Shown here one piece after another: positions 12,468 through 37,846 of a stretch of DNA of 64,000 bases. The notes under the pieces are model-generated. The model was not told the origin of the DNA and made no database searches. It worked only from the letters and a program-made list of their open reading frames with translations. This stretch comes from an uncultured Gammaproteobacteria bacterium (GTDB taxonomy: Bacteria > Patescibacteriota > Patescibacteriia > 2-01-FULL-39-33). The position numbers and the translations under genes are program-made. The stretch lies in the NCBI GenBank assembly GCA_964558935.1, contig CAZLFP010000005.1:20667-84666 (forward strand). Reading direction: 5' to 3'. Within the stretch, counting starts at the first letter, position 1. Each line of letters opens with the position of its first letter.

Positions 12468-13103
12468 ATGATTAAAGGTTTAGATAACCAACCAGATCCT
12501 GACTTTGATGTCTACGCAAGTCAGGCAGGAAAACCTTCCAAATGGCAGATCTTTTGGGGTTTGATAGTGGAAATGATCAAAGTTGTGGTGATTTCTCTGA
12601 TGATTGTGCTGCCGGTCAGATACTTCTTAATTCAACCTTTTTATGTTAAAGGCGCATCTATGGAGCCTAATTTTTATGATCATGAATATTTAATCATTGA
12701 TGAAATTACTTACCGATTTGATGAACCCAAAAGGGGAGATATTGTGGTGTTTAAATATCCCAAAGATCCCAGGCAGTTTTTTATTAAACGAGTGGTTGGA
12801 TTACCCGGTGAAACAGTGAAAATCGATAATGGGCTGGTTTTTATCGACAGTCCAAATGGCTATGAGCCATTGCAAGAAAACTATTTGTTGGACGAGATCG
12901 AAACTTTGATGCCGCTGAAGGGCTACAGCCAGGTCAGATTGGCTCAAGATGAATATTTTCTCTTGGGAGATAACCGAGAACAGTCTTTTGACAGCCGAGC
13001 TTTTGGGCCGGTTAAAAGAGAGTTTATTGTCGGTCGTACCTGGTTGCGTGGTTGGCCGGTTAATCGGTTGACCGTTTTTAACACTCCTGAGTATAACCTA
13101 TAA
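12468..13103 (+). CDS. lepB: signal peptidase I
   Basis: Catalytic Ser box GASMEPN and Lys box KRVVGLPGE; GDNREQSFDSR. Confidence 0.85.
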   Translation: MIKGLDNQPDPDFDVYASQAGKPSKWQIFWGLIVEMIKVVVISLMIVLPVRYFLIQPFYVKGASMEPNFYDHEYLIIDEITYRFDEPKRGDIVVFKYPKDPRQFFIKRVVGLPGETVKIDNGLVFIDSPNGYEPLQENYLLDEIETLMPLKGYSQVRLAQDEYFLLGDNREQSFDSRAFGPVKREFIVGRTWLRGWPVNRLTVFNTPEYNL

Positions 13104-15243: not shown

Positions 15244-18200
15244 ATGTTTTTAAAACGCCTTTTTCCCGTGCAAAGGTCGTTAAAAACTACCAAAAAAGTA
15301 ATGGCAGTTTGTCTTTTGGTGGTTTTTTTGTTTCTTACCCTGGGCTTGCCAGTGGTTTTAGCGCAAGGTACACCCGGTGATCCGTATGGCTTGCAAGCGA
15401 TTGAGGAAGACACGGTTTTTGCCCCGACTAATTTAATCGTCATTATTGCCAACTTAATTCGAATCTTCCTGGGTTTGTTGGGCATGATTGCGGTGTTGTT
15501 AATGCTGTACGCCGGTTATCTGTGGATGACGGCTGCCGGCAATCCCGAACAGGTTCAGAAAGCTCAGAGAATTATTAAGCAAACGACAGTTGGTATTATC
15601 ATTATCTTATCTGCTTTTGCAATTGTCACTTTTGTCTTGGGTATTTTTGGGGGCGGTACCACCACACCGGGAGAGAGGCCGATTCCCACTCCTCGGCCAC
15701 CTCTAACCCCTTGGGGTATTGGCAAGGGACCGATTGAGGATGTTTATCCTCGACCCGGACAAGATGATGTACCGATTAATACGGCGATTGTAGTCACGTT
15801 TAAGGATGCGATAAATGCAACTACCATTTGTAATGTCACGGGAGATAGTAGTTGTGACGGTGAAATAATGAAGAATGTTGAAATTTGCATGTTAGATGAG
15901 AATAATCAATGTGTGGATTCTGTTCATCCGGAAAATCAGTTTCAGGCTACAAATTTTGCAAATACAACAGTGACACAAACGGGTGACGGACGAACTTTCG
16001 TCTTTAACGTAGCTGCCGGTGGTAAGTATTTGGGTGTGGAAGACGGACGTGAGCGACCTTTCCAGGTAACGCTTAAAAATGGCATTCAAAACACGGCCGG
16101 TGAGGATATTTTCAGCGGTTTAGCCGGCAACCAGTTCGCCTGGAATTTTGAAACCAACGGTAATTTGGATTTGGATCCCCCGGAAATAGTGGCTTTTGAT
16201 CTGTATCCCGGTTTAGATACTGCACAAGATATTTATACAGAAGCCTCTCCCGCCACCAGAGCTCAGACCACTTTAGCTTTTTCTGGGGCACCGCAGGCCA
16301 ACCAAGCCGCCAAAGTGAATGGCGTGCCGTATACGAGTAGTAATTTTAGTCAAACTTTAACTCAAACAACACAGATACCGGGTGCGACTGTTTATTTTAG
16401 AAGTAATGCCGGTTTTAGCATTAACACGGGTGGTACAGATACGGTGACAGTAACGGTGACGGCCGGTAGTGCGACTAACCCTGAGACAGGCATTGCTGAG
16501 CAAGTCGAAATTTCTGTAGCTGGTAGCTTTTTAACGTTAAATGTTAGTAGTAATCGGGTGGTCTTGTCTGAAGGCAATAGTATTTTTTCCGGTGCCTACT
16601 TGGAAGGAAATTTTCAAGCTGGCGGAAGCTGGACTTTTCAGGCCACTCCGGCTGTTCAGGGAGACAGGATAACCATAGATAACGAAGATCGCTTTATTTT
16701 TGTGGAAGCGACTGAAAATCGGTCCAGTCTTCAAATCAATGATCAATCTTACGTGACTGTCAAAGCTACAGACACTGCTGGCAATCCCAGATATTTGGGG
16801 AATTTGGCTGCAGCTATTGCTAATCAAACCAGATTAGCAACTCGTGTAGATGGCAGTAGTGTGGTTGTAACCGCTCCGAATACTGGAGCAGGTGAGATTA
16901 GCGTTAGTCATGATGTTGTAGGTTTAACAGTAACGCCAACTCCAGGCACTGAGCGAGTGATTAACCAGCGAACTGTTGGACAACGAGATTTGCCTAGAAA
17001 CCATTTCTTTCAGATTAATTTCAATGAACCGGTTAACCCTGTATTTTTAGATGGAAACATTATAGTTACCATCAATGGAACTCCAGTTAGTGATGTTAGA
17101 TTGGAGTATTCCAATAATTACAAAACAATTGAAGTCTTACCTCCAGAGACAAACAAATGCGGCGTCAGCAACTGTGGTCGAGATATCTATTGCTGGATTT
17201 TAAGTCCACAACAAGATGCTTACCCGGCTTCAGTGGAAATCAAAGCAGCGGTTTTACAAACCCAAGCAGTTCTCGATGCAAATAATTTATGTTCAGATTG
17301 GGGAGGTTCGGTTGATACTTATGGCAGATGCTCGCGTAAGGTGGATTTGGAGTGTGCTGCCGATTGTGAAATGATCTACTATCCATTAGCCTCCTACACC
17401 GCTCCAGACGGTGTGGTGGACTTGGCTTTTAATTCATTTAACGGCAGTTTCAATACTTATGAGGATTATGATTTGGCTAAGACGGTTGGTATTGCCGAGG
17501 GTCAGTCTTGTGATAATTGCGTGGAAAACAGTAATGATGGAAAATCTGGTCGGAATGCTTATATGTTAAAATACAACCCCAACTACACTCCGTTGACTAA
17601 TAATATGAAAAATGAAAGCGGAGGGAGCGCTTATTACGGAGACAATTTCCAGTGGTCATTTTATATTTCTTCATTACTGGATAAGGAAGCCCCACTGATT
17701 ACTTCTGTGACTCCGTTATTGGGCGGAGAAAGCGATTTTAGAGATGAACCCATTGCTATTAATTTTAACAAAGTTATGCGCAGCCGGACCTTAAGACCTG
17801 GCTGGGATAAAGACACTGAACATCGGTATTTGGTGGTCGAAACGGTTTCAGCCGGTGCCCAATCTTTGGGCTATTGGATTAGTAAGTATAATCTGGATAC
17901 GGATGCGGATGATTTGGCGGATGAGACGCGGGTGGAAATTGAACATACTCCTTATGCAGTGGCTACAGAATATGCCAGTTTAGCCGGGTCTGGTTTGGAG
18001 TCCATTGGTCAGAATTGTTTTAAGCCGGGAGCCGGTCCCAAAGATACCAGTAATAATTGCCAATATAATCCTAGCGGTGGTTTATATCAGGGTTGTGTGG
18101 CGGTGAATGAAAGTAATCCGTCCTCCTATGGCCATTGGAATTGCGCTGATGTGGCTGGCTTGGTGGAAGGTGTTGAAATATGTGCAGCCAATGAAATCTG

Positions 18201-18354
18201 CGAACCGTTTGATGAAACTGGAGATGGTAGCTATGGTGGTAGCTGGATTATTACTTTAGATGCAGGGTGGAGAACAACTAATACCACCTGTAGTGATGAT
18301 ACTGACAGCTGCCAGGGCTGTTGCTTTGGTCGATGTGTGGCCAGTGGATCATAA
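15244..18354 (+). CDS. giant secreted Cys-rich surface protein (1036 aa) with N-terminal VirB2/TrbC-pilin-like membrane hairpin
   Basis: Signal peptide, then two hydrophobic helices flanking a YAGYLWMTAAGNPEQVQKAQ loop (aa about 60-135). Long Thr/Asn/Gly-rich extracellular region ending in the Cys cluster CSDDTDSCQGCCFGRC. Confidence 0.7.
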   Translation: MFLKRLFPVQRSLKTTKKVMAVCLLVVFLFLTLGLPVVLAQGTPGDPYGLQAIEEDTVFAPTNLIVIIANLIRIFLGLLGMIAVLLMLYAGYLWMTAAGNPEQVQKAQRIIKQTTVGIIIILSAFAIVTFVLGIFGGGTTTPGERPIPTPRPPLTPWGIGKGPIEDVYPRPGQDDVPINTAIVVTFKDAINATTICNVTGDSSCDGEIMKNVEICMLDENNQCVDSVHPENQFQATNFANTTVTQTGDGRTFVFNVAAGGKYLGVEDGRERPFQVTLKNGIQNTAGEDIFSGLAGNQFAWNFETNGNLDLDPPEIVAFDLYPGLDTAQDIYTEASPATRAQTTLAFSGAPQANQAAKVNGVPYTSSNFSQTLTQTTQIPGATVYFRSNAGFSINTGGTDTVTVTVTAGSATNPETGIAEQVEISVAGSFLTLNVSSNRVVLSEGNSIFSGAYLEGNFQAGGSWTFQATPAVQGDRITIDNEDRFIFVEATENRSSLQINDQSYVTVKATDTAGNPRYLGNLAAAIANQTRLATRVDGSSVVVTAPNTGAGEISVSHDVVGLTVTPTPGTERVINQRTVGQRDLPRNHFFQINFNEPVNPVFLDGNIIVTINGTPVSDVRLEYSNNYKTIEVLPPETNKCGVSNCGRDIYCWILSPQQDAYPASVEIKAAVLQTQAVLDANNLCSDWGGSVDTYGRCSRKVDLECAADCEMIYYPLASYTAPDGVVDLAFNSFNGSFNTYEDYDLAKTVGIAEGQSCDNCVENSNDGKSGRNAYMLKYNPNYTPLTNNMKNESGGSAYYGDNFQWSFYISSLLDKEAPLITSVTPLLGGESDFRDEPIAINFNKVMRSRTLRPGWDKDTEHRYLVVETVSAGAQSLGYWISKYNLDTDADDLADETRVEIEHTPYAVATEYASLAGSGLESIGQNCFKPGAGPKDTSNNCQYNPSGGLYQGCVAVNESNPSSYGHWNCADVAGLVEGVEICAANEICEPFDETGDGSYGGSWIITLDAGWRTTNTTCSDDTDSCQGCCFGRCVASGS

Positions 18355-18385: not shown

Positions 18386-21300
18386 ATGAAGAGAAGAGGT
18401 GTTAACAATTTATGGAGGCCAATATTTGCCTTGGCAATTATTGGTGTGTTGTTATTCAGCTTGCCTGTTTTGGCCGAAGGAGGTGACGTTGATCCATATG
18501 GTTTAGGTCAAATTGAACAGCAAACGGTTTTTACAGACACCGGCCTGCTTGAGATCATTGCCATGTTGATTAATATCTTCATGGGTTTGTTGGGCATGAT
18601 TGCTGTCATTTTAATGATTTATGCCGGTTATTTATGGATGACGGCCGGGGGTAATCCCGAAAAGGTGGAAAAAGCCAGGATGATTATCCAAAGAGCTGTA
18701 ATTGGCTTAATTATTATTTTTTCGGCTTGGGCGATCGTGACTTTTGTCTTCTATTCCTTGGGCGTGGCAGTCGGTGATGGTGGCAGACAGTCTTGTAATG
18801 AGGAAAATCCTTGTCCGCCCGGTTACCAATGTGTTGATGGCAGATGCAACAGAATACCGGATTACAATTTTAGAACCAGAGAAGGTGAGTTAACTTATAT
18901 TTCCGGTGTGCGATCTCAATCTTTAGACTGGTCCAGATCAACCAGTCGTTATACTAGTTTGGTGCCTGTGCCGCCAACAGCTGATTTCCAGGTCAGAGGC
19001 TATGCTTTTAAACGTAATGAGATAATTGCGCTATTAGCTTTATATGGTGGTTTAGATGAACAGTCTTTAAATAACTTGGGTACTTATCCCATTACCATTT
19101 CTGAAACTCCCAGTACAGAAGTAGAAGAGTGGAGGGGCGTGGATTTGTCTGCTGTGCCAGTTGGTGAAAGCATCTATGTCAAGAATAGGGCTAATTCGCT
19201 TAATCCGGTAAGTGATTTACAGAGTTCTTTTGAATCTGATCTTTTAACTTTACGTGTGATAAATCAGCATTGTTTCAATGGTGTTTTAGATGGTGATGAA
19301 ACAGAAATCGATTGTGGTGGCAGCTGCGGAGCCTGTGCAGGTCAGAGTTGTCGCACTTTAGAGGATGATACTTGCAGTGATGCTAATTGCCGGTCAGGAG
19401 TGTGTGGACCGGATTGTGTTTGTGTAACTGAACCAACCATTGTTTTGGTCGTAGAGGATGACGGCGCTCCCGGTAATTACATTACCATCTATGGTCATCA
19501 TTTTGGTCATGAACAGGGTCAAGTTCATTTTTATACTACCGACGGAACTCTGTCAGCTACAGTAAATTGGACTGCTTTCCCGGACGAGTGTTCAAATACA
19601 TGGCAAACCGGTCATATCATTGCTGTTGTGCCGGCTTTATCTGCAGGTAATTACCAAATAGTGGTTGAGACCAGTGATGGTTTACTGAGTGAGGGTTATG
19701 CATTCGAAGTTAATACGGTTAACAGACCGGGTGTATGTACTATTCAAAACACCACTCTATCTCAACCCGGACAGTTGGTTTACGGTTTTGGTCAATCTGA
19801 AAATGAAGTTAAACTGATTGGCAACCAGTATCCGACCACCGTTGATGGTAATAATGAAGTACAGTGGTTATACCAAACATATAGTCAACAAACAGGTGGG
19901 TATGTAGATGATATCTACAACAGCCCAAGTAATACCTGGTCAACGGTTAATGAAGCCTTCGATGTAGTACCGGTTGGTCAGGATGGTCGGACAGCAGTTA
20001 GGGTATCTTTGGAACCAACCAAAAACAGTAATCCATATCCGTTCTTAATCTCTGCGGGTGGAGTTGGTGATCCATGTGGTGATCCTGAAGAACAGGTCTG
20101 TGCAGCAGCTGAAGTCTGTCAGCCTGGCTTGGTGTGCGATTTTGAGGATTGCACTTGTCAATTGGGTGAAGCTGAAACTTGCGGTAATGGACAAATTGAT
20201 CAAGGTGAGCAGTGCGATAGCTCAGCTGAAGCGATCTACAGTCAATTAGATGATGATAACAATCCGGATTGTTCTTTGTATGGAGATTATTTACCGGGTA
20301 GAAATGTTACCTGTCAGCCAAATTGTACAGTTAATGTCAATCCTTGTTTGCTAGCGTCTTTAGCCGGTAAGCCGTCTCAACACAATATTTATTCCTGGGC
20401 CTTTTTGAATATGTCTGGAACAGATATACCAAGGCCTGGTTTGTGCGGTAACAATATTTTAGATGATGGTGAAGATTGTGAAGATGTGGATGGCAGTCTT
20501 ACGTATCGAGGGGACAGAAGCACATGTCAGGCTTACGGCTTTAACAGTGGTACTTTGGCTTGTTCCAATTGTCAGTTAGACACTCAGAATTGTGAAGGAG
20601 CTTCCATTGGAGATAAGGCTTCTTCCCATGCCATTTACGGTTGGATTATCGGACACACGGGAGATTATAATCCAGGTGAGGAAGAGCCAACAATAGTTGA
20701 AGATTGTACTAGAGAAAGAACCTGCCGACCAGGCGCCAGATTGCCCAGTCCCACCCCTTGGAGTGAAGGCTGGACGTCAGCCACCAATATCAATGTTGAA
20801 AATCCACTGGCCTGTTTAGATGCCATTATTCTAGCTCGCTTTAGTTTGCCCATGGATGTGGATACCATTAATCCGGACAATATTAAAGTGTTAAAGAGAT
20901 TAGCGACTGGTGGTTGGCAAGAAGTTGCAGGTGATGTCGTTGCGGATTTGGATAGTGATAAGATGATTATCGGTAGTGATAACAGTGATATGGATAATGA
21001 TTATTTCAGATTCATTCCTACCACTAATTTAGAGCCTAATGCTTGGTACAAGGTGGTGGTCAGACAAACCGTTGAAAGTTTATCTGGCAGACAGATGAGA
21101 TTAAACCGAGTTGACCAAGCCAGAGTGAATGATCGCGAGTGTAATGTAAATGGCATTACAGATGCGGCTTACTGTTGGAATTTTCAAACTCGTAGTGCCG
21201 GGACATGTAATCCGGGCTGTGTGGAATGTTCACCGGATCCGCATACTATGTATTGGCAAGGTGCTACCACCAAGTATTTAGCTGATGTTGATAGTCAAGA

Positions 21301-24300
21301 TAATGTGTGTCTGTTGCTTAAAACCGGTAATACTGATTGGAATTGGTCTACAGATGATGAACCGACTGATGTTAAAGTTAGTTTGGGTTCGACCAATAAT
21401 TTTTATAACACAGGTACGGCCATTGATGAAAACATTTTTGACTCACCCGGCTATACCAAAATTATTACCCAATTGCGATCTTATACAGGCAAGGAAGATT
21501 TCTGCAGGGCTAGGGTGGATTTCACCAATCCGGTGGTGGTTGAAGATTCTTCCTGTTTGTATGGTAATATCCAAAGTCCTAGTCCTTGGATTAGTTCTGA
21601 TGATGCTTGCTTAAACGCTATGGTGTCAGCGCGTTTTAGTCGGGATATGACTGATGAGACTTTGAATTCTGGGAATATTTTAGTCTACCAATGTTCTGAT
21701 TTTGATTGTGATCTTACCGGCTTAACACCTATGACATACGGCCAAGTTGAAATTTTTCAATATTCTCATGTCTTGGATGACGTGACTGCCCAGCAGATTA
21801 TTGATCTTGGAGAACCGGAAGATGACGAGTTGCCTGAAGGTTTTTATATTCAACCTATAACCGGAGGCAATCCGGACGGCAACTTCAGATTTACACCCAA
21901 TACCTGGTACCGGGTGGTGATTAAAGGAGATACCGAAGGTGTCAGAGGTTCAACCGGCGGTAAGCTATTGAGAACCAATTACGCTCATGATGCTGACGGG
22001 GAAGTAAATGATTACACTTGGAAGTTTAAAACAGCCGGCAATGATTGCCAAGTAGACAGAGTGACAGTTACACCTCAGAAAAGGAGTATGTCAGCTGCTG
22101 GACAGAACCAGATTTACCATGCTTTGTCAGTGGCAGCCAATTGTAATTTGTTGAATTCAGCTTCTTTTAGCTGGGCTTGGAGATCTTTATATGAATTGGA
22201 TGATGACCGAGATGCGAATGATCCTGATTATGGCAATGCCAGTGATGTGGCTAGAGTTTGTCCTTACAACTCCAACGCTTTATGTGATTATACAGCTCTG
22301 ACTTCTGAGCAGAGCAGTTGGTTGACTCGGTCTAAAGTTCGAGTCTTCGGTATAGTTGACAGTGATGTTTATATTAAAGCACGAGCACTGGAGACCGGTC
22401 CTCAGTCAGCAGTTGCCGGCTACAATCCATTGGATCCGGAGATGGGTGATAAGTGGGATTACGGTACTTTGAGAATTGGTTACAGCGATCTTAAGGTCAT
22501 CGGTCATTCACCGGACAGGTTGACTTGCAAGATTCCAACTGCTGGAAATTATTCGGATTATGATATTCGAGTCAGATTTAACATTGACGTTGATACCGGT
22601 TCAATTAAACCCGGTGTTAATACTTTCTTGTATCAATGCGATCCAGAAAATAACGACTGTCATCCGGGGACTGAGCTTCAAACAGTTGATTTAACTCGTC
22701 TTAACACTACTTTGTATGCCAAAGAAATTGTCTTAAATCCTAACCAACAATTATCGCCTTACACCAGCAATACATATCGTTTGTTAATTCAAGGCGGTCC
22801 TAACACAGATCGTCCAATCGCTTTCAATGGCAAACGTCTCATGACTTTCAATTACAACAGTGCCGGCGGAGGTGCCGGTGAAGAGTGTGAACCTGATATT
22901 TTACCCTGGTCAGATTTTAGTGGTGTTTGCAATAATTGTATGTTAGACAGTAGTAAAAATTTATGCACTTATGCCAATGGCAGTTTTGCTGAGTGTCAGA
23001 ATAGTCTGCCCAATTCGTCTTTAGATTATTGTAATGATAAATGTTTTAACACCGGTAATGAGAATCGAGCTGCTTGTGGTGATGATTATGTCAATGTCGG
23101 TTATGAACAATGCGATGATGGCAACATTATTTCCGGTGATGGTTGCAGTAATGTTTGTTTATGGGAAGGAGCCGGTTCAGTAGCTGGCTCGGTCTGTGGT
23201 AATGGTGAACAAGAAGAGGGAGAAGCTTGTGATGATGGAGATCTGGATAATATTAATGAGTGTAACAATAATTGCTTGTTGACTGAAACTCCGGAACCGG
23301 GCTCTTTGCCGTACAGGCAGTGTCGTATTGAAGATAACTTTACAGTCTCACTGGGCGCTAATATTACTCCTCCCGACATTGGCGTGGCTCAACCGTTTGC
23401 TGGCACACCGCTCGACGATTACCGCAGTTATTATGTCAACAGTTCATTGTTTGGTAATAATAGGCATACTCCCTGGGGAGCTAAAATAATTGGCGGCCAG
23501 GTCATGATCGAGGCTCAAGGCAATGAAGGCAGTTCCGCCTTAATGACGGAAACTGAGGTTGACAGTGACCATTATCTTGTTAAAACCCAGATAATCGCCA
23601 ATGGTGCAATCACCAGTACAGATGATATTGGTTTGGCTTTTGGTTACCAAGATGAAAATAATTTTTGGTTGTTGAATTGGGCTGATGTTGGTTATCCTGG
23701 AGACAGAGCAGACACTTACCGCAGATTTAGATTAATCAACCAGTTTGGCCAAGTTGCAATTACTGCCACACCTTTCAATGTTGATGCACCTAATCATAAC
23801 TTTACTCTGTCGGTTGAAGTAATTAATTTTAGCGATGGAGCTCTTATCAAATGCTTTCGAGACAATACTCTACTGTTTAGTCATGAGGTTGACAGACGAG
23901 TGACCGGTCAGGTCGGGTTGTATGCCAGAGATCCGGATACTTCAGTCTTCTTTAATTTCTTAGATATCATTAATTTGGACTCGCAGTCCAACGACTGGTG
24001 TAATACTTTTGTCCAAACCCCAATTTGTGGCAATGGCACGGTTGAAACCGGCGAGGATTGTGATGACGGCAATACGGATTCCGGAGATGGCTGTAGCAGT
24101 AGATGCTTGCATGAGGGTTCTGTGAATGCCGTGTGTGGAGATGGCTTGGTTCAAACCGGCCAGGATGACAGTTATTCCTGGGTCTTTATCGTCGATAATA
24201 CGGAAGAAGCATGCGCTAGTGTTGAACCGGAAATTGTGATGGGACCATGTCCGAATGCTATTTGGAGAATTAAGACTAAGTTAGTTGATGAAAATGGCGT

Positions 24301-26350
24301 TTCAACCGGCATTGAGAGTTTGAATGTTAAAATTGAAGCTTCCAATCTGACTGTTACACACCAAGGTTGGTGGCCTAAGTTTAAGAATTGGTTTTGGGGT
24401 TTGTTTGGTCAATCCGCCGTGGCAGTCGATTATCCAAATCCTTTATTTGACTACACTTTTACTGCCACAGAATTAAGTGGTGATCTGCGCCAAACGCCTT
24501 CCATTTCTGGCAGCAGCGACGAGATATTGGGTTATCGTCAACAGGAAGAAGACGGTAATGTGTACTATGTGTTAAACATTATTCCGGGTCAGAATTGGAC
24601 CATAGATCGTCATTACCGTATTACCACCACAGATCAGGCTGACAATCAAACAGCAGTCGAAACTTATATTGAACCGGATATTTGTTTAATAGATGATCTG
24701 GAAGTCAATGTTTGGCCTAAAGGTCAGCTGGCTTTAGAAGATACATTTTTCTGCGCCGAAGCTTCGGGTTGTGATAGAGATCAGGATACTGCGACACCGG
24801 GTAACCAGCATATTTACCGAATTTGGGCCACCAATGGTAGACTGGGAGACAGAAAATCTTTCCTAAGATCTACTTCAACTTGGGAATTGAGTGTGATTCC
24901 TGATCTAGCTAATGTTTTAACTCGGCAAGATGCGAGTGCCACGACTTACCAAGGCGATCACTGGATTACGGCACAGGGTAGAACAGGAGGGCGAGCTTCC
25001 TTAAGAGTGACTGCCGGCAATCCTCAAACCAATGATGATGATTACACTCAGTCCATATATTTATTAGTCTTCCTATGTGACAATCCTTGGCCAGATCCAG
25101 ATAATTTCCCTTTCATTGACAGTGATAATAACTGTACCGGAGGTGACTGCGTTAACACCAATTTTTCCTTAGGCTATTGCCGTGATGCCGGCGAGCCTGG
25201 TTTTGCCGATGATCTGCCCAGATTGGATGAAAATGTCAGAGTTGTGGGTATGAATCCTGATTTAAATATTGTTAAGCAGATGTTCTTCCAAAAAATGGAT
25301 GATTCAGTTAATCCAGCAGTTGCCACTGGGGATACCATTGGCCTGAGAGTAATTAACAACAATAATTACTATAATCCAAGAACCTGGTTTGTCTCTCAGT
25401 TCAACCAAGATCCGGGTGCCATGTCGACCATAGATGGTTACCAATCCGTTGCTCAAGGTCCGACCAGCTATATTCACGCTGCAGATTTGGTGAATAATTG
25501 GAATACTGAAAAAAAGGCATACAGCACTAATTATGTTTTAACTTATACTCAGACCGGGGATGAAGACATTGTTAATATCTATAACCAGATGTTGAATAAT
25601 TTATTTTTCAATTACGGTATTCCAGAACAAGGTGGCTTGCCCACCATGGGTAGTTGTAAAGGCACTAGCTTTGCTTGTTGGTCTGATGCTGATTGCGACA
25701 GTCTGGGTCCCAACGCCTATTGTACTTCAGATAAAGCCAAGTTAACTCGAGATTTAAGAAGATTGGCAGATATGCAGGATATTGATTTAAGCTTGATGCA
25801 GTATAAGTCAGTTGAGCGTTGTTCCGGTTTGCCAACCAGATTGTGCGATAACCAAGATGATTGTGAGGGTTATGGTATGTGCGGCAATTTCTATCCATTG
25901 TTGCCCTCCGGCACTTATGTTCCAGCCAGAAGTATTTCAGTTTGGCCATCGTGGCAGGCAACTTTGGGTAATGCGCTGGGCAGGGCTTTGCCGGTTGACC
26001 CGATTAACCAATTCAGTGGCTGCAGTAGTCCGTATGAGGCGCAAACTTGTTGGGCTGAAAGTCTGAAGTCTTTTAATTGTTCAGCTGTTGCAACAGCTCT
26101 TGCTAATCAGTCAACCTATAATTACATTTATTTGTCTTCCAGACCGGATGAGACCACCTTGTCTAATGTTAGGTATTTATTGGCCAATAATGAGTTCTAT
26201 CCGAATTACAATACTTTGTGGCAGTCATTACCTCTAAACTTACGCAACTATACTGATATAGTGACTCATACTTTATTTACAGATTATGGTGCTTTCTTTA
26301 TTGATGACATCAATGGTACCTTTAACTGTGCCCGCGATTTAAGTTTATAA
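18386..26350 (+). CDS. giant secreted surface protein (2654 aa): pilin-like hairpin, at least 6 Myxococcus-type Cys-rich repeats, LamG/ConA-like domain
   Basis: N-terminal domain paralogous to the preceding gene (about 60% identity over about 100 aa). Repeats of form CGNGxxxxGExCDDGNxxxGDGCSxxC at several sites. LamG-like segment (DHYLVKTQI...FWLLNWADVGYPGDR...). Confidence 0.75.
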   Translation: MKRRGVNNLWRPIFALAIIGVLLFSLPVLAEGGDVDPYGLGQIEQQTVFTDTGLLEIIAMLINIFMGLLGMIAVILMIYAGYLWMTAGGNPEKVEKARMIIQRAVIGLIIIFSAWAIVTFVFYSLGVAVGDGGRQSCNEENPCPPGYQCVDGRCNRIPDYNFRTREGELTYISGVRSQSLDWSRSTSRYTSLVPVPPTADFQVRGYAFKRNEIIALLALYGGLDEQSLNNLGTYPITISETPSTEVEEWRGVDLSAVPVGESIYVKNRANSLNPVSDLQSSFESDLLTLRVINQHCFNGVLDGDETEIDCGGSCGACAGQSCRTLEDDTCSDANCRSGVCGPDCVCVTEPTIVLVVEDDGAPGNYITIYGHHFGHEQGQVHFYTTDGTLSATVNWTAFPDECSNTWQTGHIIAVVPALSAGNYQIVVETSDGLLSEGYAFEVNTVNRPGVCTIQNTTLSQPGQLVYGFGQSENEVKLIGNQYPTTVDGNNEVQWLYQTYSQQTGGYVDDIYNSPSNTWSTVNEAFDVVPVGQDGRTAVRVSLEPTKNSNPYPFLISAGGVGDPCGDPEEQVCAAAEVCQPGLVCDFEDCTCQLGEAETCGNGQIDQGEQCDSSAEAIYSQLDDDNNPDCSLYGDYLPGRNVTCQPNCTVNVNPCLLASLAGKPSQHNIYSWAFLNMSGTDIPRPGLCGNNILDDGEDCEDVDGSLTYRGDRSTCQAYGFNSGTLACSNCQLDTQNCEGASIGDKASSHAIYGWIIGHTGDYNPGEEEPTIVEDCTRERTCRPGARLPSPTPWSEGWTSATNINVENPLACLDAIILARFSLPMDVDTINPDNIKVLKRLATGGWQEVAGDVVADLDSDKMIIGSDNSDMDNDYFRFIPTTNLEPNAWYKVVVRQTVESLSGRQMRLNRVDQARVNDRECNVNGITDAAYCWNFQTRSAGTCNPGCVECSPDPHTMYWQGATTKYLADVDSQDNVCLLLKTGNTDWNWSTDDEPTDVKVSLGSTNNFYNTGTAIDENIFDSPGYTKIITQLRSYTGKEDFCRARVDFTNPVVVEDSSCLYGNIQSPSPWISSDDACLNAMVSARFSRDMTDETLNSGNILVYQCSDFDCDLTGLTPMTYGQVEIFQYSHVLDDVTAQQIIDLGEPEDDELPEGFYIQPITGGNPDGNFRFTPNTWYRVVIKGDTEGVRGSTGGKLLRTNYAHDADGEVNDYTWKFKTAGNDCQVDRVTVTPQKRSMSAAGQNQIYHALSVAANCNLLNSASFSWAWRSLYELDDDRDANDPDYGNASDVARVCPYNSNALCDYTALTSEQSSWLTRSKVRVFGIVDSDVYIKARALETGPQSAVAGYNPLDPEMGDKWDYGTLRIGYSDLKVIGHSPDRLTCKIPTAGNYSDYDIRVRFNIDVDTGSIKPGVNTFLYQCDPENNDCHPGTELQTVDLTRLNTTLYAKEIVLNPNQQLSPYTSNTYRLLIQGGPNTDRPIAFNGKRLMTFNYNSAGGGAGEECEPDILPWSDFSGVCNNCMLDSSKNLCTYANGSFAECQNSLPNSSLDYCNDKCFNTGNENRAACGDDYVNVGYEQCDDGNIISGDGCSNVCLWEGAGSVAGSVCGNGEQEEGEACDDGDLDNINECNNNCLLTETPEPGSLPYRQCRIEDNFTVSLGANITPPDIGVAQPFAGTPLDDYRSYYVNSSLFGNNRHTPWGAKIIGGQVMIEAQGNEGSSALMTETEVDSDHYLVKTQIIANGAITSTDDIGLAFGYQDENNFWLLNWADVGYPGDRADTYRRFRLINQFGQVAITATPFNVDAPNHNFTLSVEVINFSDGALIKCFRDNTLLFSHEVDRRVTGQVGLYARDPDTSVFFNFLDIINLDSQSNDWCNTFVQTPICGNGTVETGEDCDDGNTDSGDGCSSRCLHEGSVNAVCGDGLVQTGQDDSYSWVFIVDNTEEACASVEPEIVMGPCPNAIWRIKTKLVDENGVSTGIESLNVKIEASNLTVTHQGWWPKFKNWFWGLFGQSAVAVDYPNPLFDYTFTATELSGDLRQTPSISGSSDEILGYRQQEEDGNVYYVLNIIPGQNWTIDRHYRITTTDQADNQTAVETYIEPDICLIDDLEVNVWPKGQLALEDTFFCAEASGCDRDQDTATPGNQHIYRIWATNGRLGDRKSFLRSTSTWELSVIPDLANVLTRQDASATTYQGDHWITAQGRTGGRASLRVTAGNPQTNDDDYTQSIYLLVFLCDNPWPDPDNFPFIDSDNNCTGGDCVNTNFSLGYCRDAGEPGFADDLPRLDENVRVVGMNPDLNIVKQMFFQKMDDSVNPAVATGDTIGLRVINNNNYYNPRTWFVSQFNQDPGAMSTIDGYQSVAQGPTSYIHAADLVNNWNTEKKAYSTNYVLTYTQTGDEDIVNIYNQMLNNLFFNYGIPEQGGLPTMGSCKGTSFACWSDADCDSLGPNAYCTSDKAKLTRDLRRLADMQDIDLSLMQYKSVERCSGLPTRLCDNQDDCEGYGMCGNFYPLLPSGTYVPARSISVWPSWQATLGNALGRALPVDPINQFSGCSSPYEAQTCWAESLKSFNCSAVATALANQSTYNYIYLSSRPDETTLSNVRYLLANNEFYPNYNTLWQSLPLNLRNYTDIVTHTLFTDYGAFFIDDINGTFNCARDLSL

Positions 26351-26373: not shown

Positions 26374-27564
26374 ATGTTTGACGATCAAATGAAGAATCAG
26401 CCAGATAAAACAGGCCAACCACCAGCTGATTTACCTAAGGTGGAAGATATTTTTGCTGACTCAGAAACAAAAGCACAATCCAGCAGTCCTTTTAAGCCAG
26501 TACAGCCTCCCACGCAGCCACCAGCTCAGTCTGGTCAAGTTCAACCAACTCAGCCTGCAAAAAGTGCAGTAGATCAAATGCCTGACGGTATCAGTCAAGC
26601 CGAATTGTTTGGAGGTCGTTCAATTTTGGAAAATAAAGTGCTAGTGGCTGCTATGCTGGTCATTGCGGCTGTGGTTGTTGGTACCCTGGTCTGGTTTGGT
26701 TATGTGTGGTTTACCAATCGGACAATAGAGCCAGTTCCCGAGCCAAGTTCACAAACGGTTGTTACAACTGAACCCTCAGTCATTCCCCAGCCTGAACCAG
26801 CCCCTGCTCCCACTCCAGAACCAGAGCCGGAACCAGTTATGGCTAAAGACAGTGATTTTGATGGATTAACAGATGACCAAGAGAGAGATTTAGGTACAGA
26901 TCATTTGAAAGCAGATTCAGACGGAGATGGTTTAATCGATTACGCTGAGGTAAATATTTATCTAAGCAATCCTCTGGATGTGGATACGGATGATGACGGG
27001 TATAATGATGGTAAAGAGGTGACTAATGGCTTTGATCCAACCAGGCCGGGTAATGCTTTACTGCCTGCTTTTGACCAGAATGGCAATTTAAAACCTTTAC
27101 CGATTCCAACTCCTGATGAACCAGATTACAACGTTTTTAGTAATGAAACGTACAGTATCTATTTTGAATATCCCAAAGACTGGCCAACACCAAAGTTGGA
27201 AGTTAAACAGTTTAAAGATACTTATCCTACCATGCCAACCAATTGGTATTTGGTGACTGGTCCAGACTTGGAATGTCAGGATGAAGGTTGTATTCTAACC
27301 AGATTATACATCAATGTTTATCCTAAACTGGATTATTTGCGAGCCATAGATGATTTAAACAATATGCAGTTTGTGTCCGAAGTGTCTGAAGGTAATGTTA
27401 ACGGCATGCAAACAATTTCTTACAAAGAATCCGGAATGGCCGGGTCTAAGAAGACTATGATTTTTGGACCTAATTATTCTTTAGTGCTTAACACTTCGAT
27501 GCTGAACATAGATGATCGTTTTGATGCGTATATGCAAATTATTAATTCTCTTAATTTAAATTAG
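26374..27564 (+). CDS. single-pass membrane protein with Pro-rich linker and TSP3-like Asp-rich Ca-binding repeats
   Basis: Cytoplasmic Pro/Gln-rich N terminus; one TM ([24 protein letters not shown]); [15 protein letters not shown] linker; [12 protein letters not shown]...[12 protein letters not shown]...[12 protein letters not shown] repeats; C-terminal globular domain. Confidence 0.6.
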
Positions 27565-27569
27565 TAAGT

Positions 27570-28961
27570 ATGGATGACAATAACCAACAACCCAAACCAC
27601 AGCCAAACAATGTTGAGGATCTAATAAAGCAGCCGAGTACTAAGTCGGATGTGTATGTCATGCCAGAGAAATTCCATCCTAAACAAGCGCAGTCATCGAA
27701 TAAAGGCTTAATCATATCCATTGTAGTACTACTCTTGGTCATGCTGCTTAGTGGTACTTATTTAATCTATGTTTATGTAGTTCAACCTCAAATGCAGACT
27801 CAACCGGTGCAAGTCGTTCAGCCTACTCCTGAACCGGAACCGGAACCTGAACCGGAACCGGAACCGGAACCGGAACCTGAACCGGAACCGGAGCCTGAAC
27901 CGGAACCGGAACCGGAGCCTGAACCGGAACCAGCTCCTAAACCAACCGGTGAAATTACTGCCAGTCAAGATTCAGATCAAGACGGTTTAACTGATCCAGA
28001 AGAAGTTCTTTTCACCACTGATCCCAATTTGCCAGATACTGATGGTGATGGCTATTTGGACGGTACTGAAGTTACCAATGGTTTTAGTCCGTCTCAAGCC
28101 GGAGGAAGTCAGGCAGACATGTTGCCAGCCATGCCATATATCACTCAGGTGGAAACTAATTTCAGTAAAAATAATCTCAAATTATATTATTTTAAAGATT
28201 GGCAAATGAATCTATTTCCGGATAATTACGAGATTAGATTGACGATCCCAACTACAGGTGAAATGATAAAGGTGACAGTTAGATCTAATCCAGATAATTT
28301 GTCAGCCACCAATTGGTATTTAACCAACAATTCTTCAGTTACTTTAAGTCAGTTAACACGTATTGAAACAGATGAGTTAACCGGCATTTATTCACCGGAT
28401 AAGACTGAGGTCTATTTAACCGATGAAGACAGACAGAAATTCTATATCTTTGAATACCAGATAATGGATGACAGCAAGGAGCTGAGATATCCCAATATTT
28501 TAAGATACATGATAAAGAATTTAGAGATTGTAGCGGATGAGACTCAATCCGTGCCTGCTGTTGAACAAGTAGAATTAGATTTAGCTTTTGATAAATTTTT
28601 TAAAGATTGGATTGTTGCTTGGAATGACCGAGACGTAGAAACGCTGGTTAACATTTATGGCTATGGTGAAAGTCAGATTGAGGCGACAGAGGACAAGGCG
28701 ATTTGGCAGTACCAAAAGTATGAATTGTACCAAAATGAGGTGACTGAGTCACAGGGTAATTTTGACATTAAAGCGTATTATGTAGTGACTGATAATGACG
28801 GACAGTTTCAGATTTTGATTGTTAACGGTGGATATCTGGAGGATGGCAGCTCAGCCTATATTGGATCATGGCAGGTATATCCGAGTGAAGGCAGTCCGAT
28901 GTCGATTTTTGATTCTCAAGCGGCAGCTGAGCAGAAGATTGATGATTTAATCTCCTTATGA
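27570..28961 (+). CDS. paralogous single-pass membrane protein with (Pro-Glu)n linker and TSP3-like repeats
   Basis: Same architecture as 26374-27564: TM ([24 protein letters not shown]), (PE)~18, [12 protein letters not shown]...[13 protein letters not shown], distinct C-terminal domain. Confidence 0.6.
27829..27937 (+). repeat. in-frame hexanucleotide tandem repeat (cc[tg]ga[ag])~18 encoding (Pro-Glu)n
   Basis: Directly visible near-perfect GAACCG/GAGCCT tandem units inside the CDS. Confidence 0.9.
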
Positions 28962-29519: not shown

Positions 29520-30767
29520 ATGTTAAAAGATAGTCTCATAACTGGCTTAGATATTGGATCTACCACAATTCGTATGGTAGTGGGTCAGAAAACCAAGAAA
29601 GATGACCGGCTTAAGATTATTGGAGCTAGCGAAGCACCGGCTCAAGGCATTAGCAAAGGAGTAGTCACCAGCGTGGAGGACGCTGTCTCCTCAATTTCTG
29701 ATGCCTTGGAAAAAGTTGAACGGATGATCGGCCAACCCGTGGAACATGCTTGGGTGGGTATCTCCGGAACGCATATTATTGCTCAAGAAAGCAAGGGTGT
29801 GGTTGCCGTTTCAAAAGCTGACGGAGAAATAAGAGCTGAAGATGTTGAACGGGCGATTGAAGCGGCCAGGGCAATTGCGACACCACCGAATTACGAAATT
29901 CTGCATGTCATTCCTAAGAATTTTTCAGTTGATTCGCAGACGAACATTAAAGATCCAATCGGCATGACCGGCATTAGACTGGAAGTTGAAACTCAGATCA
30001 TTCAAGGTTTGACTTCCCAGATTAAGAATTTAACCAAGTGCATTTACCGGACTGGTTTGGATATAGATGATTTAGTGTTGGCTGTCTTAGCCAATGCTGA
30101 GAGCGTTTTAACCAATCGTCAAAAGGAGTTGGGGGTGGCGGTGGTTAACATTGGGGGAGCCACAACCAGTTTGGCCGTATTTGAAGAGAGTGATGTTCTG
30201 CATACGGCCGTATTGCCCATTGGTTCAGAATATATCACAAATGATATCGCAATTGGTCTTAGGATTTCCATAGATACGGCTGAGAAAATTAAGGTTAGAC
30301 AAGGCAGTAGTTTGCCTAAAGATTTTAAGAAACATGATGAGGTTAGTTATTCTGAAGTGAGCGGTACGGAAGAAGGTTTTTTTTCCAAAAAAGAAGTGGC
30401 TGAGATTATTGAAGCTCGAGTTGAAGAAATCATGAACCGCATTGACAAGGAATTGAAAAAGATAGGTAAATCCGGCATGCTGCCAGCCGGGATCGTCTTA
30501 ACTGGATCAGGGGCAAAATTAGAAGGCATTGTTGAGACGGCCAAGCAGTCTTTAAGATTGCCGGTTTCCTTAGGCCAGCCTCAAGAATTGGTTTCTAATT
30601 TGGATAAAATATCAGACATGTCATATACAACTGCCGTTGGCTTGGTTTTATGGGGAGCTCAAATGCAAAAAGGAGGTGGCCTGGGTAAACTGCCCAGTTT
30701 GCGTTTTGAAAGCATTTCTAAAGCAACCAATCAAATCAGAAGTTGGTTTAAACATTTATTACCTTAA
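29520..30767 (+). CDS. ftsA: cell division protein FtsA
   Basis: Actin-like ATPase (GLDIGSTTIRMVVG); size 415 aa; adjacent to ftsZ. Confidence 0.85.
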   Translation: MLKDSLITGLDIGSTTIRMVVGQKTKKDDRLKIIGASEAPAQGISKGVVTSVEDAVSSISDALEKVERMIGQPVEHAWVGISGTHIIAQESKGVVAVSKADGEIRAEDVERAIEAARAIATPPNYEILHVIPKNFSVDSQTNIKDPIGMTGIRLEVETQIIQGLTSQIKNLTKCIYRTGLDIDDLVLAVLANAESVLTNRQKELGVAVVNIGGATTSLAVFEESDVLHTAVLPIGSEYITNDIAIGLRISIDTAEKIKVRQGSSLPKDFKKHDEVSYSEVSGTEEGFFSKKEVAEIIEARVEEIMNRIDKELKKIGKSGMLPAGIVLTGSGAKLEGIVETAKQSLRLPVSLGQPQELVSNLDKISDMSYTTAVGLVLWGAQMQKGGGLGKLPSLRFESISKATNQIRSWFKHLLP

Positions 30768-30768
30768 T

Positions 30769-31569
30769 ATGCCTAGAAAAAAAACCACAACTCGTAAAAC
30801 TCAGGTTAAAAAAAGTGTTAAAAAAAATACTACCTCTTCTGTCAAATCGCGAAGGAATCAAACCGGTCAGTTAAAGGATTTTCCAGAATACGTACCTAGT
30901 CCGCCGGTGAAATCACGACAGAGAGTGGGGAGAGTGATAATTATTACAGCTTCGACCACCTTACTGCTTATTATTAGCTTAATCGCCGCATATAATCTCT
31001 GGTATGCTCCATACCTAAGTCAACCTCAGATTTTAGGTCAGGTTGAATCTAAGGATGTACCGGCTGGTTCTCAACCCTTGGGAGTAGAGTTAAATTTACC
31101 TGAAACACCGGCACCCAGTCCTAAACCAAGTGATCCAACTCAAGATTGGTTAAGCTTCCAGAATCAGGATTATTGGCTAAAATATCCGGCTAATTGGCAG
31201 TTAAACACCTCAACCTCGGAAGTTAGTTTATCAAACGACTTGGCAAATGTTTTAATATCTATTAAAGTGGAGATATCCAATCTAGATCTAGATCAATACA
31301 TCGCTCAGTTAGATCGAACAAATATTTTGTCAACTAGAAATAAATATACTTTAAATACTCAAGAAAAAGGCGAAATAAATGGGCAATATGCTGTTGTTAG
31401 GCAGTTATCTCTGGATAATCAAGAGCAGGTAGTTACCTACTTGAAATCGAACAATAAAATTGTTATTATCAAGTTAACAGCAGATAGCTTAAATTTAGAA
31501 CTGAATGAGTTCTACCAGCAATTGCTTTCCACTTTTAATTTAATTGCTCAAGCGCCTGTTGAAGAATAA
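30769..31569 (+). CDS. hypothetical bitopic membrane protein between ftsA and ftsZ
   Basis: Basic cytoplasmic N terminus (MPRKKTTTRKTQVKK...), single TM (VIIITASTTLLLIISLIAAY), extracytoplasmic domain. No family recognised. Confidence 0.5.
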   Translation: MPRKKTTTRKTQVKKSVKKNTTSSVKSRRNQTGQLKDFPEYVPSPPVKSRQRVGRVIIITASTTLLLIISLIAAYNLWYAPYLSQPQILGQVESKDVPAGSQPLGVELNLPETPAPSPKPSDPTQDWLSFQNQDYWLKYPANWQLNTSTSEVSLSNDLANVLISIKVEISNLDLDQYIAQLDRTNILSTRNKYTLNTQEKGEINGQYAVVRQLSLDNQEQVVTYLKSNNKIVIIKLTADSLNLELNEFYQQLLSTFNLIAQAPVEE

Positions 31570-36424: not shown

Positions 36425-36751
36425 ATGGAAGAAGACAAAAGTTTTGAAACCTTAATCAATCAGGAACAACCGCCGGTCGTTAAGACAGAAGCGGAGGATT
36501 TAAAAGCTTTACTGGAAGCTAATCTTAAGTATAGTCGGGCCATTTATGCTGATGTGCAAAAAGTTCGTCGGTATATATTCTGGCGCATGGTGATCAATAT
36601 CATCTGGTTGATTCTGGTTTTACTGCCAATCATTGTCGCCATTATTTATTTACCACCCGCTTTAATGGGTCTGTACCAAAGCTACCAGGAACTGCTAAAC
36701 GATTCACAGGGTTCATTGGATTTGATAAATCAGTTAAACCAATTTCAGTAA
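36425..36751 (+). CDS. hypothetical small membrane protein
   Basis: ORF with one hydrophobic helix (IIWLILVLLPIIVAIIYL). Its stop overlaps the prfB start (TAATG). Confidence 0.35.
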   Translation: MEEDKSFETLINQEQPPVVKTEAEDLKALLEANLKYSRAIYADVQKVRRYIFWRMVINIIWLILVLLPIIVAIIYLPPALMGLYQSYQELLNDSQGSLDLINQLNQFQ

Positions 36752-37846
36752 TGCAAGATTTAGTTAACAAACTTAAAGATTTAAACGCAAAAATCTCTAA
36801 GACCTGGAGGTTACTTTGACCTGTCTGCAAAGCAGAAAAAGATTACGGAGTTGGAAAAAGACATGTCCAAGCCAGGATTTTGGGAAGATAATGTTACAGC
36901 AGCTCAAGTCAGTCAGGAATATGAAAGCATTAAATCTCAAATTAATGAGTGGGAAGCTTTAAAGCAGGAAGCTAGTGATTTAATTGAATTGTCTGAAGAT
37001 GAATCTTTGACAGCTGAGATTGAAAAAAAATATCAGAAGTTAGAGCAGCAATATTCAAAATTGGAGTTTGCTGTTTTATTTTCCTCCAAATACGATAACC
37101 AGTCAGCCATCTTGTCTATTCATGCCGGTACCGGGGGTGTCGATGCCCAGGATTGGGCGGAAATATTATTTCGGATGTATAGTCGTTTTTGTGATAATCA
37201 CGCTTTTAAAATTAGAATCATTGACCAAACTCCAGGCAGTGAAGCCGGGATTAAAAGCGTCACTCTAGAGATAGTCGGACATTTGGCCTATGGTTGGTTG
37301 AAAAGTGAAAATGGAGTGCATCGGTTGGTTAGAATCTCTCCTTTTGACGCGGAAAAAATGAGGCACACTTCATTTGCTTTAGTCGAAGTTTTACCGAATT
37401 TAGAAGAAACGACCGAAGTGGATTTAAAAGCGGAAGATTTAAAGATTGAAGTCATGCGAGCCGGAGGGCATGGCGGTCAATCCGTAAATACCACAGACAG
37501 TGCTGTCAGAATTACTCACATACCTACTAAAATTTCTGTTAGATGCCAGAATGAGAGATCTCAACTCCAAAATAAAAAGACCGCTTTTAAGATCTTAACC
37601 GGCAAGTTATTAAATTATTATGGAGAGTTGGAAAATAAGGAGCTAAAAAGGATTAAGGGAGATTATATGCAGGCTGAATGGGGTAATCAAGCCAGGTCAT
37701 ATATTATGCAGCCTTACCAGTTAGTCAAAGACCATCGGACCGGTTATGAGACAAGTGAGATAGAGCAGGTGTTGGACGGCGATTTGGATCAGTTCATAGA
37801 AAGTTATTTAAGATATAAAGTTAAGAAAAAAAGCAAGATTGCTTAA
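36751..37846 (+). CDS. prfB: peptide chain release factor 2, requiring a programmed +1 frameshift at 36814-36820
   Basis: Frame 0 runs from ATG 36751 and ends at TGA 36817-19 in the context AGG AGG TTA CTT TGA C. The +1 frame continues from GAC 36818 into the 331-aa RF2 body (GGQ motif GGHGGQ, SPF present). Confidence 0.9.
36806..36820 (+). promoter_or_regulatory. RF2 autoregulatory +1 frameshift site (internal SD GGAGG plus CTT TGA C)
   Basis: Sequence ggaggttactttgac is seen directly. This motif is conserved in bacterial prfB genes. Confidence 0.85.

Follow-up and report, generated by a model that had tools for sequence, protein, structure and literature searches.

A 64-kb stretch of DNA from contig CAZLFP010000005.1 (here called the window) carries two adjacent genes, A and B, whose products each join a small pilin-like helical hairpin to a giant surface protein. 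Gene A (positions 15244 to 18354) encodes 1,036 amino acids (aa), and gene B (18386 to 26350) encodes a product of 2,654 aa that is identical to P0157. The two genes are co-directional, with all of their parts on the forward strand, and are separated by 31 nucleotides. Each product begins with a Sec-type signal peptide and an acidic stretch containing DPYGL, followed by a pair of long hydrophobic helices with the basic stretch (T)AAGNPE.V.KA between them. The initial annotation had placed a pilin-like hairpin behind the signal peptide of A (15364 to 15660, residues 41 to 139), with a paralogous copy in B (18476 to 18776, residues 31 to 130), and the sequence, matches to the profile PF18895, and AlphaFold2 (AF2) modeling all bear this out.

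Protein A, as recognized from its translated open reading frame (ORF), matches to PF18895 and Big_5, and an AF2 model, consists of a signal peptide, the hairpin, a linker, an Ig-like ectodomain, and a Cys-rich C terminus. The signal peptide (aa 1 to 40; 15244 to 15363) contains an AF2 helix at residues 13 to 33 and is predicted from sequence to be cleaved by signal peptidase I (SPase I) at VLA/QG. Its end lines up with the signal-peptide ends of free-standing pilins in alignment A1, which combines both window hairpins with 27 free-standing Patescibacteria pilins. The mature protein would start with a net-negative segment (aa 41 to 63, QGTPGDPYGLQAIEEDTVFAPTN; 15364 to 15432) that the positive-inside rule predicts to be extracellular. 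The hairpin itself (aa 64 to 136; 15433 to 15651), delimited by PF18895, NF045849, alignment A1, and AF2, comprises helix 1 (residues 64 to 96), the turn AAGN, and helix 2 (101 to 136, or to 138 in AF2) with a basic N-terminal part. In a hairpin-only AF2 model, the per-residue confidence score pLDDT is 89 to 94 across residues 71 to 130. The flexible linker that follows (aa 137 to 160; 15652 to 15723) is rich in Gly, Pro, and Thr; pLDDT falls below 50 over residues 133 to 156, a region that we read as disordered.

Protein B, described from its translation and from matches to PF18895, TIG, Big_5, DUF4215, and TIGR02232, follows the same plan. Its signal peptide (aa 1 to 30; 18386 to 18475) has a predicted SPase I site at VLA/EG, placed by sequence and alignment A1, and its hairpin (aa 54 to 126; 18545 to 18763; PF18895 match at aa 53 to 121) is a paralogue of the hairpin of A. 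BLASTP aligned the two proteins over the N-terminal module only, with 76 identities in 138 residues (55%; E = 1e-36), and comparison of A against B gave no significant similarity outside it. From DPYGL on, a core of 88 ungapped residues is 67% identical, so that the earlier figure of about 60% for the two copies was a fair one.

The ectodomain of A (15724 to 18351), a string of Ig-like beta domains ending in a Cys-rich region, was delimited with Big_5, AF2, and Foldseek. AF2 models it as a chain of beta-sandwich domains with pLDDT of at least 85 over most of residues 160 to 365 and 470 to 930. Its only significant matches to PDB structures in Foldseek were to the S-layer protein SbsC (4uj6, E = 3.5e-7; 4uic, E = 1.8e-6), with a match probability of 0.99 and TM-scores low enough (0.09 to 0.13) that only domain type and arrangement are alike; Ig-like receptor ectodomains, SbsB, and Sap stood lower in the list. 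The C terminus of A (aa 996 to 1036; 18229 to 18351) is Cys-rich, with the motif GCCFG.C and with G1025, C1026, C1027, G1029, and C1031 invariant in alignment A4; AF2 confidence is low there. In the ectodomain of B, Pfam and NCBIfam identified TIG, Big_5, and DUF4215 domains and Cys-rich acidic repeats of the myxococcal type (TIGR02232), and orthologues of B additionally show Laminin_G_3. The same scans found no enzyme domain in either ectodomain and no SLH or other wall-binding domain in either protein. Domains of these kinds are what adhesins and surface-layer proteins are typically built from. Searches against PDB sequences returned nothing for A and one marginal TIG match for B.

Membership and architectures of the PF18895 family

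Profile searches place both hairpins in PF18895 (T4SS_pilin; VirB2-like pilins of Patescibacteria; T4SS, type IV secretion system), which has a gathering cutoff of 26.6 bits. Protein A scored 32.5 bits as a whole and 35.5 bits when its N-terminal piece was searched alone (match at aa 66 to 131), and the corresponding scores for B were 43.6 and 49.7 bits, making A and B solid members of PF18895 on this evidence. The second-best profile for both hairpins was NF045849, the Mbov_0395 family of pilin-like proteins from Mycoplasma integrative and conjugative elements (ICEs), which matched over positions 8 to 79 of its 80-position model with an E value of about 1e-8 and with scores of 33.5 to 35.3 bits, below its cutoff of 40. 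Members of that family likewise come from wall-poor or monoderm bacteria, but they are small and ICE encoded. The module of A contains three hydrophobic segments, and the PF18895 match spans the second and third of these, which excludes the idea that the hairpin is a signal peptide followed by an unrelated helix. A VirB3-like identity was also rejected: although VirB3 is likewise a small membrane protein with two helices, its termini are cytoplasmic and it lacks a cleaved signal peptide (PMC12857230).

Alignment A1 is collinear from end to end. L79, G80, G91, M95, and G117 are invariant, W94, T96, A97, and G99 show conservation of 90% or more, and the basic loop is common to fused and free forms. 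When the first 159 residues of A served as the query, 51 proteins of 109 to 199 aa came back, 36 to 61% identical to it and almost all carrying PF18895; those with a named source were, with one exception, from Patescibacteria. Fused hairpins are 45 to 49% identical to free pilins, and free pilins are 46% identical to one another. Since the fused hairpins are as close to the free pilins as the free pilins are among themselves, they have retained the constraints of the family.

Free VirB2-like pilins of the same profile family, such as those in the arrays of "Ca. Southlakia epibionticum" and Nanosynbacter lyticus TM7x, share with A and B a signal peptide and a two-helix hairpin of the pattern LGLLG...YAGYLWMTAAGN.E.V.KAK...IGL.IILSA, and they are 37 to 61% identical to the module of A. 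They differ in being about 110 to 160 aa long, in often forming arrays of 2 to 12 genes, and in frequently lying near virB4, whereas A and B carry 900 and 2,500 extra residues that are predicted to be extracellular and form a fixed two-gene pair in a setting of housekeeping and cell division genes, far from T4SS genes. The classical pilins VirB2, TrbC, and TraA (PF04956; T-pilus, RP4, and F pili) also resemble A and B in that a long signal peptide precedes two hydrophobic helices, a short basic loop connects these helices, and the termini are both predicted to be outside. However, the loop is about 8 residues longer in A and B, their genes are not beside virB3 or virB4, their host is monoderm, and head-to-tail cyclization of the kind found in VirB2 and TrbC is impossible while the extension stays attached. 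Minor pilins that carry large adhesin domains, for instance those at the tips of type IV pili and of type II secretion pseudopili, embody the same design idea, a small polymerizing pilin module with a large binding domain, but this is an analogy of design and not a shared membership: type IV pilus pilins have an unrelated fold and machinery, and neither A nor B matched the class III prepilin motif PF07963 (N_methyl) in Pfam at an E value of 1 or less.

The fused architecture recurs widely. A profile of the hairpin built from A1 found 78,249 cluster representatives (E ≤ 1e-3) among 1.84 billion proteins, and architectures were tallied for 224 proteins gathered across sequence and profile searches. 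Short relatives with a single hairpin are free pilins with a median length of 138 aa. Long relatives with a single hairpin number 46 and span 387 to 4,432 aa; in all 46, the hairpin sits at the extreme N terminus, with 250 to 4,294 residues after it. A further 89 of the 224 contain 2 to 11 tandem hairpins. With full-length A as the query, the matches comprised an identical copy in NCBI data (P0052), 27 further clusters of 640 to 1,134 aa with PF18895, nearly all of which also have Big_5, and P0079 (1,801 aa), which has no precomputed PF18895 match. The expectation that such subunits are normally free-standing thus stood in part: short free forms abound, but so do extended and multihairpin members, and the architectures of PF18895 (free, N extended, C extended, giant, and multihairpin) are far more varied than "a small pilin" would imply.

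Among the multihairpin proteins, P0081 (555 aa), P0130 (641 aa), P0100 (1,775 aa), P0138 (1,147 aa), and P0086 (232 aa) are poly-pilins, in which a single signal peptide precedes 2 to at least 11 PF18895 hairpins separated by short linkers of Gly, Ala, Thr, and Pro in one uninterrupted polypeptide. Such chains are topologically consistent with both ends of each hairpin being outside, and to our knowledge they have not been reported for T4SS pilins. The nearest free pilins sit in arrays whose PF18895 genes number as many as 12; L013 (5335 to 14486) has 12 and L014 (5262 to 12236) at least 8. Some members of these two arrays have a domain of 100 to 250 aa between signal peptide and hairpin, making the hairpin C-terminal, and others have a C-terminal extension of 60 to 130 aa past the hairpin. 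Additions are thus tolerated at both ends, as a topology with both ends outside predicts and in agreement with the outward-facing termini of F pili (PMC5018250). The L013 and L014 arrays adjoin genes for prepilin-like (N_methyl) proteins, a solute-binding protein, and an MGDG synthase, and no VirB4 gene was found within 10 kb of them.

This variety affects annotation, because a tally of "VirB2 pilins" made by profile in these genomes also takes in giants and fragments of giants. Databases already tag PF18895 in long proteins, and NCBI names a 791-aa member "pilin." The 150-aa protein P0007, which JGI names "VirB2 component (pilin)," comes from a contig of 1,072 bp and has a hairpin core 93% identical to that of the 1,928-aa P0173. 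Because of that identity and the short contig, some "free pilins" in databases are probably truncated giants that inflate pilin counts.

Conservation and concerted evolution of the A-B pair

When one genome per species (GTDB species representatives) was scanned with a 10-sequence alignment as the query, 58 loci were found in Buchananbacteria, Falkowbacteria, and other Patescibacteria. Local annotation of related loci revealed a conserved block in which LytR is followed by SPase I, HisRS, S21, YqeY, A, B, a TSP3-repeat protein, a Pro-rich protein, YbeY, FtsA, and FtsZ. The hairpin is in the same ORF as the rest of A in 51 of the 58 loci and is present in both A and B in 39, and B, where complete, measures about 1,460 to 3,390 aa. 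Six metagenomic loci with homologues of A or B keep the same order of SPase I, HisRS, S21, (YqeY), A, and B, and their B genes were called at 3,311 to 4,051 aa where uncut by a contig end. The taxa of the 58 loci belong to the GTDB class ABY1, and all five of the related genomes with an A-B locus that were checked are VirB4 positive (PMC12102498, Table S1), which is weak evidence of a connection, VirB4 being present in most Patescibacteria. Because the block is conserved across species and these related genomes are VirB4 positive, we regard the A-B pair as a core trait, passed on vertically, of a lineage at class level whose genomes also encode a T4SS at another site.

Within family A, conservation peaks in the hairpin, whose mean pairwise identity is 51 to 53% compared with 24 to 42% in all other segments, including 30 to 34% in the linker. 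The hairpin also tracks its partner. Across 44 genomes, the hairpins of A and B from the same genome are 66% identical, compared with 48% for A-B pairs from different genomes and with 50% and 48% for orthologous hairpins within A and within B, respectively (Mann-Whitney P = 5e-24). The B hairpin of the same genome was the best-matching B hairpin in 26 of the 44 genomes and the nearest hairpin of all in 16.

Recent gene conversion was rejected as the sole cause of this likeness. Between the hairpins of A and B in the window, third codon positions are only 48% identical, and the same codon is used at 31 of 55 conserved residues where 22.6 would be expected. The fraction of identical codons is 0.53 within genomes and 0.40 across them, an excess that is due in part to shared codon bias. 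Synonymous sites are therefore largely not homogenized between the two hairpins. That the hairpins have been kept alike over the long term while the ectodomains share nothing detectable points either to the fit of the hairpins to each other or to a common partner, or to old and patchy gene conversion.

Possible roles of the hairpin in presenting giant surface proteins

We favor, with moderate confidence, a reading in which A and B have the hairpin in common as a membrane module that assembles in a sequence-specific way and presents giant surface proteins. The initial annotation had proposed that a pilin fold was co-opted as a membrane anchor or assembly module, and that proposal gains support from the N-terminal position of the hairpin in all 46 long relatives, from the disordered linker and confidently modeled beta-rich ectodomain that follow it in A, from its being the most conserved segment of family A, and from the concerted evolution of the two copies. 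Dozens of related genomes conserve the pairing and show it to co-evolve, so the module is probably an assembly or anchoring device and not simply a hydrophobic tail.

In such a scheme, A and B would be exported by Sec to the surface of a Patescibacteria (class ABY1-like) cell, and SPase I would remove their signal peptides. The hairpin would then span the cytoplasmic membrane, its net-positive stretch MTAAGNPEQVQKAQRIIKQ facing the cytoplasm and the acidic segment and linker lying outside. Pilins of the VirB2/TraA type have this same membrane topology before assembly, with the basic loop inside and both ends outside. The flexible Gly/Pro linker would carry the giant ectodomain outward, past the thin wall, for display. 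Most likely, the A and B hairpins would pack on each other, and probably also on free pilins of the same family, so that both giants would become parts of a single envelope structure, which could be an adhesive coat or a filament.

Several observations weigh against this scheme. The tie to canonical VirB2/TrbC pilins is weak. The initial annotation had called the hairpin a VirB2/TrbC-type pilin, and of the two profiles concerned, PF18895 scored above threshold in both proteins, while PF04956 (TrbC) reached 15.4 bits with B (19.1 bits with its N terminus alone; cutoff, 27.9 bits) and did not match A in the Pfam scan. Comparison of A1 by hhalign with four annotated VirB2/TrbC sequences from plasmid records pairs the proteins helix to helix and W to W over 55 collinear columns, a weak match (probability, 39%; E = 3.2e-4). 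Among PDB sequences, the hairpin profile found just a designed protein (E = 1.2), and a fold search with the hairpin was uninformative because it matched thousands of unrelated helical hairpins. The relation of PF18895 to VirB2/TrbC therefore follows from weak profile evidence and from the published proximity of free members to virB4. Neither a stand-alone pilin gene nor one for VirB4, VirB6, or VirD4, for which the initial annotation had suggested looking, is present in the window, where 47 scanned ORFs included no T4SS family and no other ORF has the hairpin, and no T4SS or free pilin gene lies within 10 kb of any related A-B locus. Co-occurrence with VirB4 adds little to this, as noted above. 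The similarity of the two hairpins could stem from old, patchy gene conversion without functional meaning, and their conservation could reflect the demands of membrane insertion instead of assembly. In addition, no pilus of PF18895 proteins has been observed, and reviews call one a possibility (PMC12857230).

A simpler role is a real possibility, although we think it unlikely: the hairpin may merely hold S-layer-like or adhesin proteins of a surface coat in the membrane, its likeness to pilins reflecting common descent with loss of function. Like A, the S-layer proteins SbsC and SbsB (Geobacillus) and Sap (Bacillus) consist of serial Ig-like beta-sandwich domains, SbsC and SbsB being the closest matches to its ectodomain, and the locus is a vertically inherited core feature lodged among housekeeping and cell division genes. 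S-layer-like envelopes were reportedly seen on ultra-small groundwater cells by Luef et al. in 2015. A and B are unlike S-layer proteins in using a membrane hairpin as the anchor; because no SLH or other wall-binding domain was found, a membrane anchor would in fact be needed. However, a plain anchor does not need a hairpin that stays 51 to 53% identical while the rest of the protein drifts to 24 to 42%, that keeps every glycine, tryptophan, and loop residue specific to the family, or that tracks its partner within each genome.

At the other end of the range, the assembly module may be a true pilus subunit or tip adhesin, in which a machine of the VirB4 type extracts the hairpins of A and B from the membrane into a VirB2-like filament, at its tip or among free pilins. 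This is a special case of the assembly module, so our confidence in the two readings overlaps, and we hold it to be doubtful. By sequence, the hairpin and free pilins are indistinguishable, VirB4 is present in related ABY1 genomes, and matched A and B hairpins are what copolymerization into one lattice would demand. F pili have both termini on the outer surface of the filament and the loop facing the lumen, so that a C-terminal extension would stick out from the exterior of an F-type filament (PMC5018250). Free PF18895 pilins occur near virB4 in 1,135 of 1,948 assemblies, in a survey in which "no adhesins such as PrgB were detected" (PMC12102498). On the other side, none of more than 60 loci had A and B beside T4SS genes, the arrays that hold the closest free pilins are separated from any VirB4 by more than 10 kb, and no T4SS pilus has been seen in Patescibacteria. 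Subunits with ectodomains of 900 to 2,500 residues may also be too large to pass through a T4SS or to assemble on one.

Were the pilus reading nevertheless correct, the hairpins of A and B and the free pilins encoded with them in a genome would copolymerize into a single VirB4-driven assembly that contains lipid, an outcome that we rate as no better than a tentative prospect. The matching of A and B hairpins within genomes would then be the footprint of a shared lattice, and ABY1 Patescibacteria would display megadalton Ig-like adhesins as integral subunits of T4SS-type filaments. These would be the first pilin-fused adhesins known for any T4SS, and they would supply the adhesin that went undetected in surveys of Patescibacteria T4SSs.

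It is improbable that A and B are precursors to be cut, with the hairpin serving as a leader or export module and cleavage in the linker yielding a free pilin and a free secreted giant. The C terminus of TrbC of RP4 is trimmed and the protein is cyclized by the SPase-like TraF, and A and B offer an exposed, disordered Gly/Pro linker directly past helix 2 as well as a gene for SPase I at the head of the conserved block. Yet SPase I is a housekeeping enzyme expected in any genome, the linker (30 to 34% conserved) shows no obvious cleavage motif that is conserved, and making a pilin of about 100 aa from a 2,654-aa precursor would be very wasteful. Finally, although metagenome-assembled genomes can contain misassemblies, frameshifts, and gene-calling read-through of the kind that might join a small pilin gene to a surface protein gene, and although some short "pilins" are truncated giants (P0007 compared with P0173), an artifact can be dismissed, as the uninterrupted architecture recurs in more than 50 independent assemblies (51 of 58 loci for A, 39 for both A and B, and six metagenomic loci) and in 46 long representatives from a library of 1.8 billion proteins.

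Read as an assembly module, the A-B pair is a concrete and testable candidate for coupling a membrane or pilus assembly module to surfaces that bind a host. Patescibacteria make up a large and mostly uncultured share of bacterial diversity and live attached to other cells. Publications have already described the VirB2-like pilins of this group, the arrays in which they occur, and their essentiality: the T4SS and its pilin array are essential in the one genetically tractable species, and no adhesin has been linked to the system (PMC10633639, PMC12102498, PMC12857230). In open-access papers and preprints, we found no description of the fusion, of the conserved A-B pair, or of its co-evolution, although one may exist elsewhere.

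Neighboring genes and other features of the window

The window is ordinary chromosome. Ahead of A and B lie genes for H+-PPase, trigger factor, LytR, SPase I, HisRS, S21, and YqeY, and after them come the TSP3-repeat and Pro-rich membrane proteins, YbeY, FtsA, FtsZ, and NrdD/G; RF2, ComEC, and a ribosomal protein operon are also present. The SPase I gene (12468 to 13103, forward strand; PF10502 Peptidase_S26, E = 5e-46) heads the co-directional block and stands upstream of A in 41 related loci. Its product is likely the enzyme that processes the signal peptides of A and B. A promoter and terminator scan of 12 to 30 kb gave counts near the shuffled expectation.

Directly after B, a gene on the same strand (26374 to 27564) encodes a single-pass membrane protein of 396 aa that has TSP3 repeats of the calcium-binding type (PF18884 TSP3_bac) and a Pro-rich spacer, and the gene holds this position in 16 related loci. 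The next gene (27570 to 28961, forward strand), kept after the TSP3 gene in 16 related loci, encodes a 463-aa single-pass membrane protein whose translation shows a (PE)n spacer and TSP3-like DxDxDG motifs and which has low-complexity family matches only. Each of the two proteins (26374 to 28961) has a C-terminal domain after the spacer and TSP3-type repeats. From their synteny, they may be part of the same envelope module as A and B.

Many of the related loci carry the label "uncultured Gammaproteobacteria bacterium" and yet contain the Patescibacteria-type A-B block together with its usual neighbors (L016-L019, L022, L024, L029, L032, L036, L041-L043, L048, L057, L062, L064, L067, L070, and L073). 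The label of these third-party assemblies looks to be wrong or a placeholder.

Elsewhere in the window, ORFs of 588, 310, 232, and 226 aa (1083 to 2849, 30637 to 31569, and 61184 to 62555) had no match in Pfam at the thresholds applied. The ORF of 310 aa is situated between ftsA and ftsZ, and its start falls within the 3' end of the listed ftsA ORF. The gene for RF2 (ORF 36851 to 37846) has the classical programmed +1 frameshift site upstream (36751 to 36820), where a short ORF runs from the ATG at 36751 into GGAGG TTA CTT TGA C, with CTT at 36814 to 36816 and TGA at 36817 to 36819, and the PCRF/RF-1 frame of RF2 continues from 36818.

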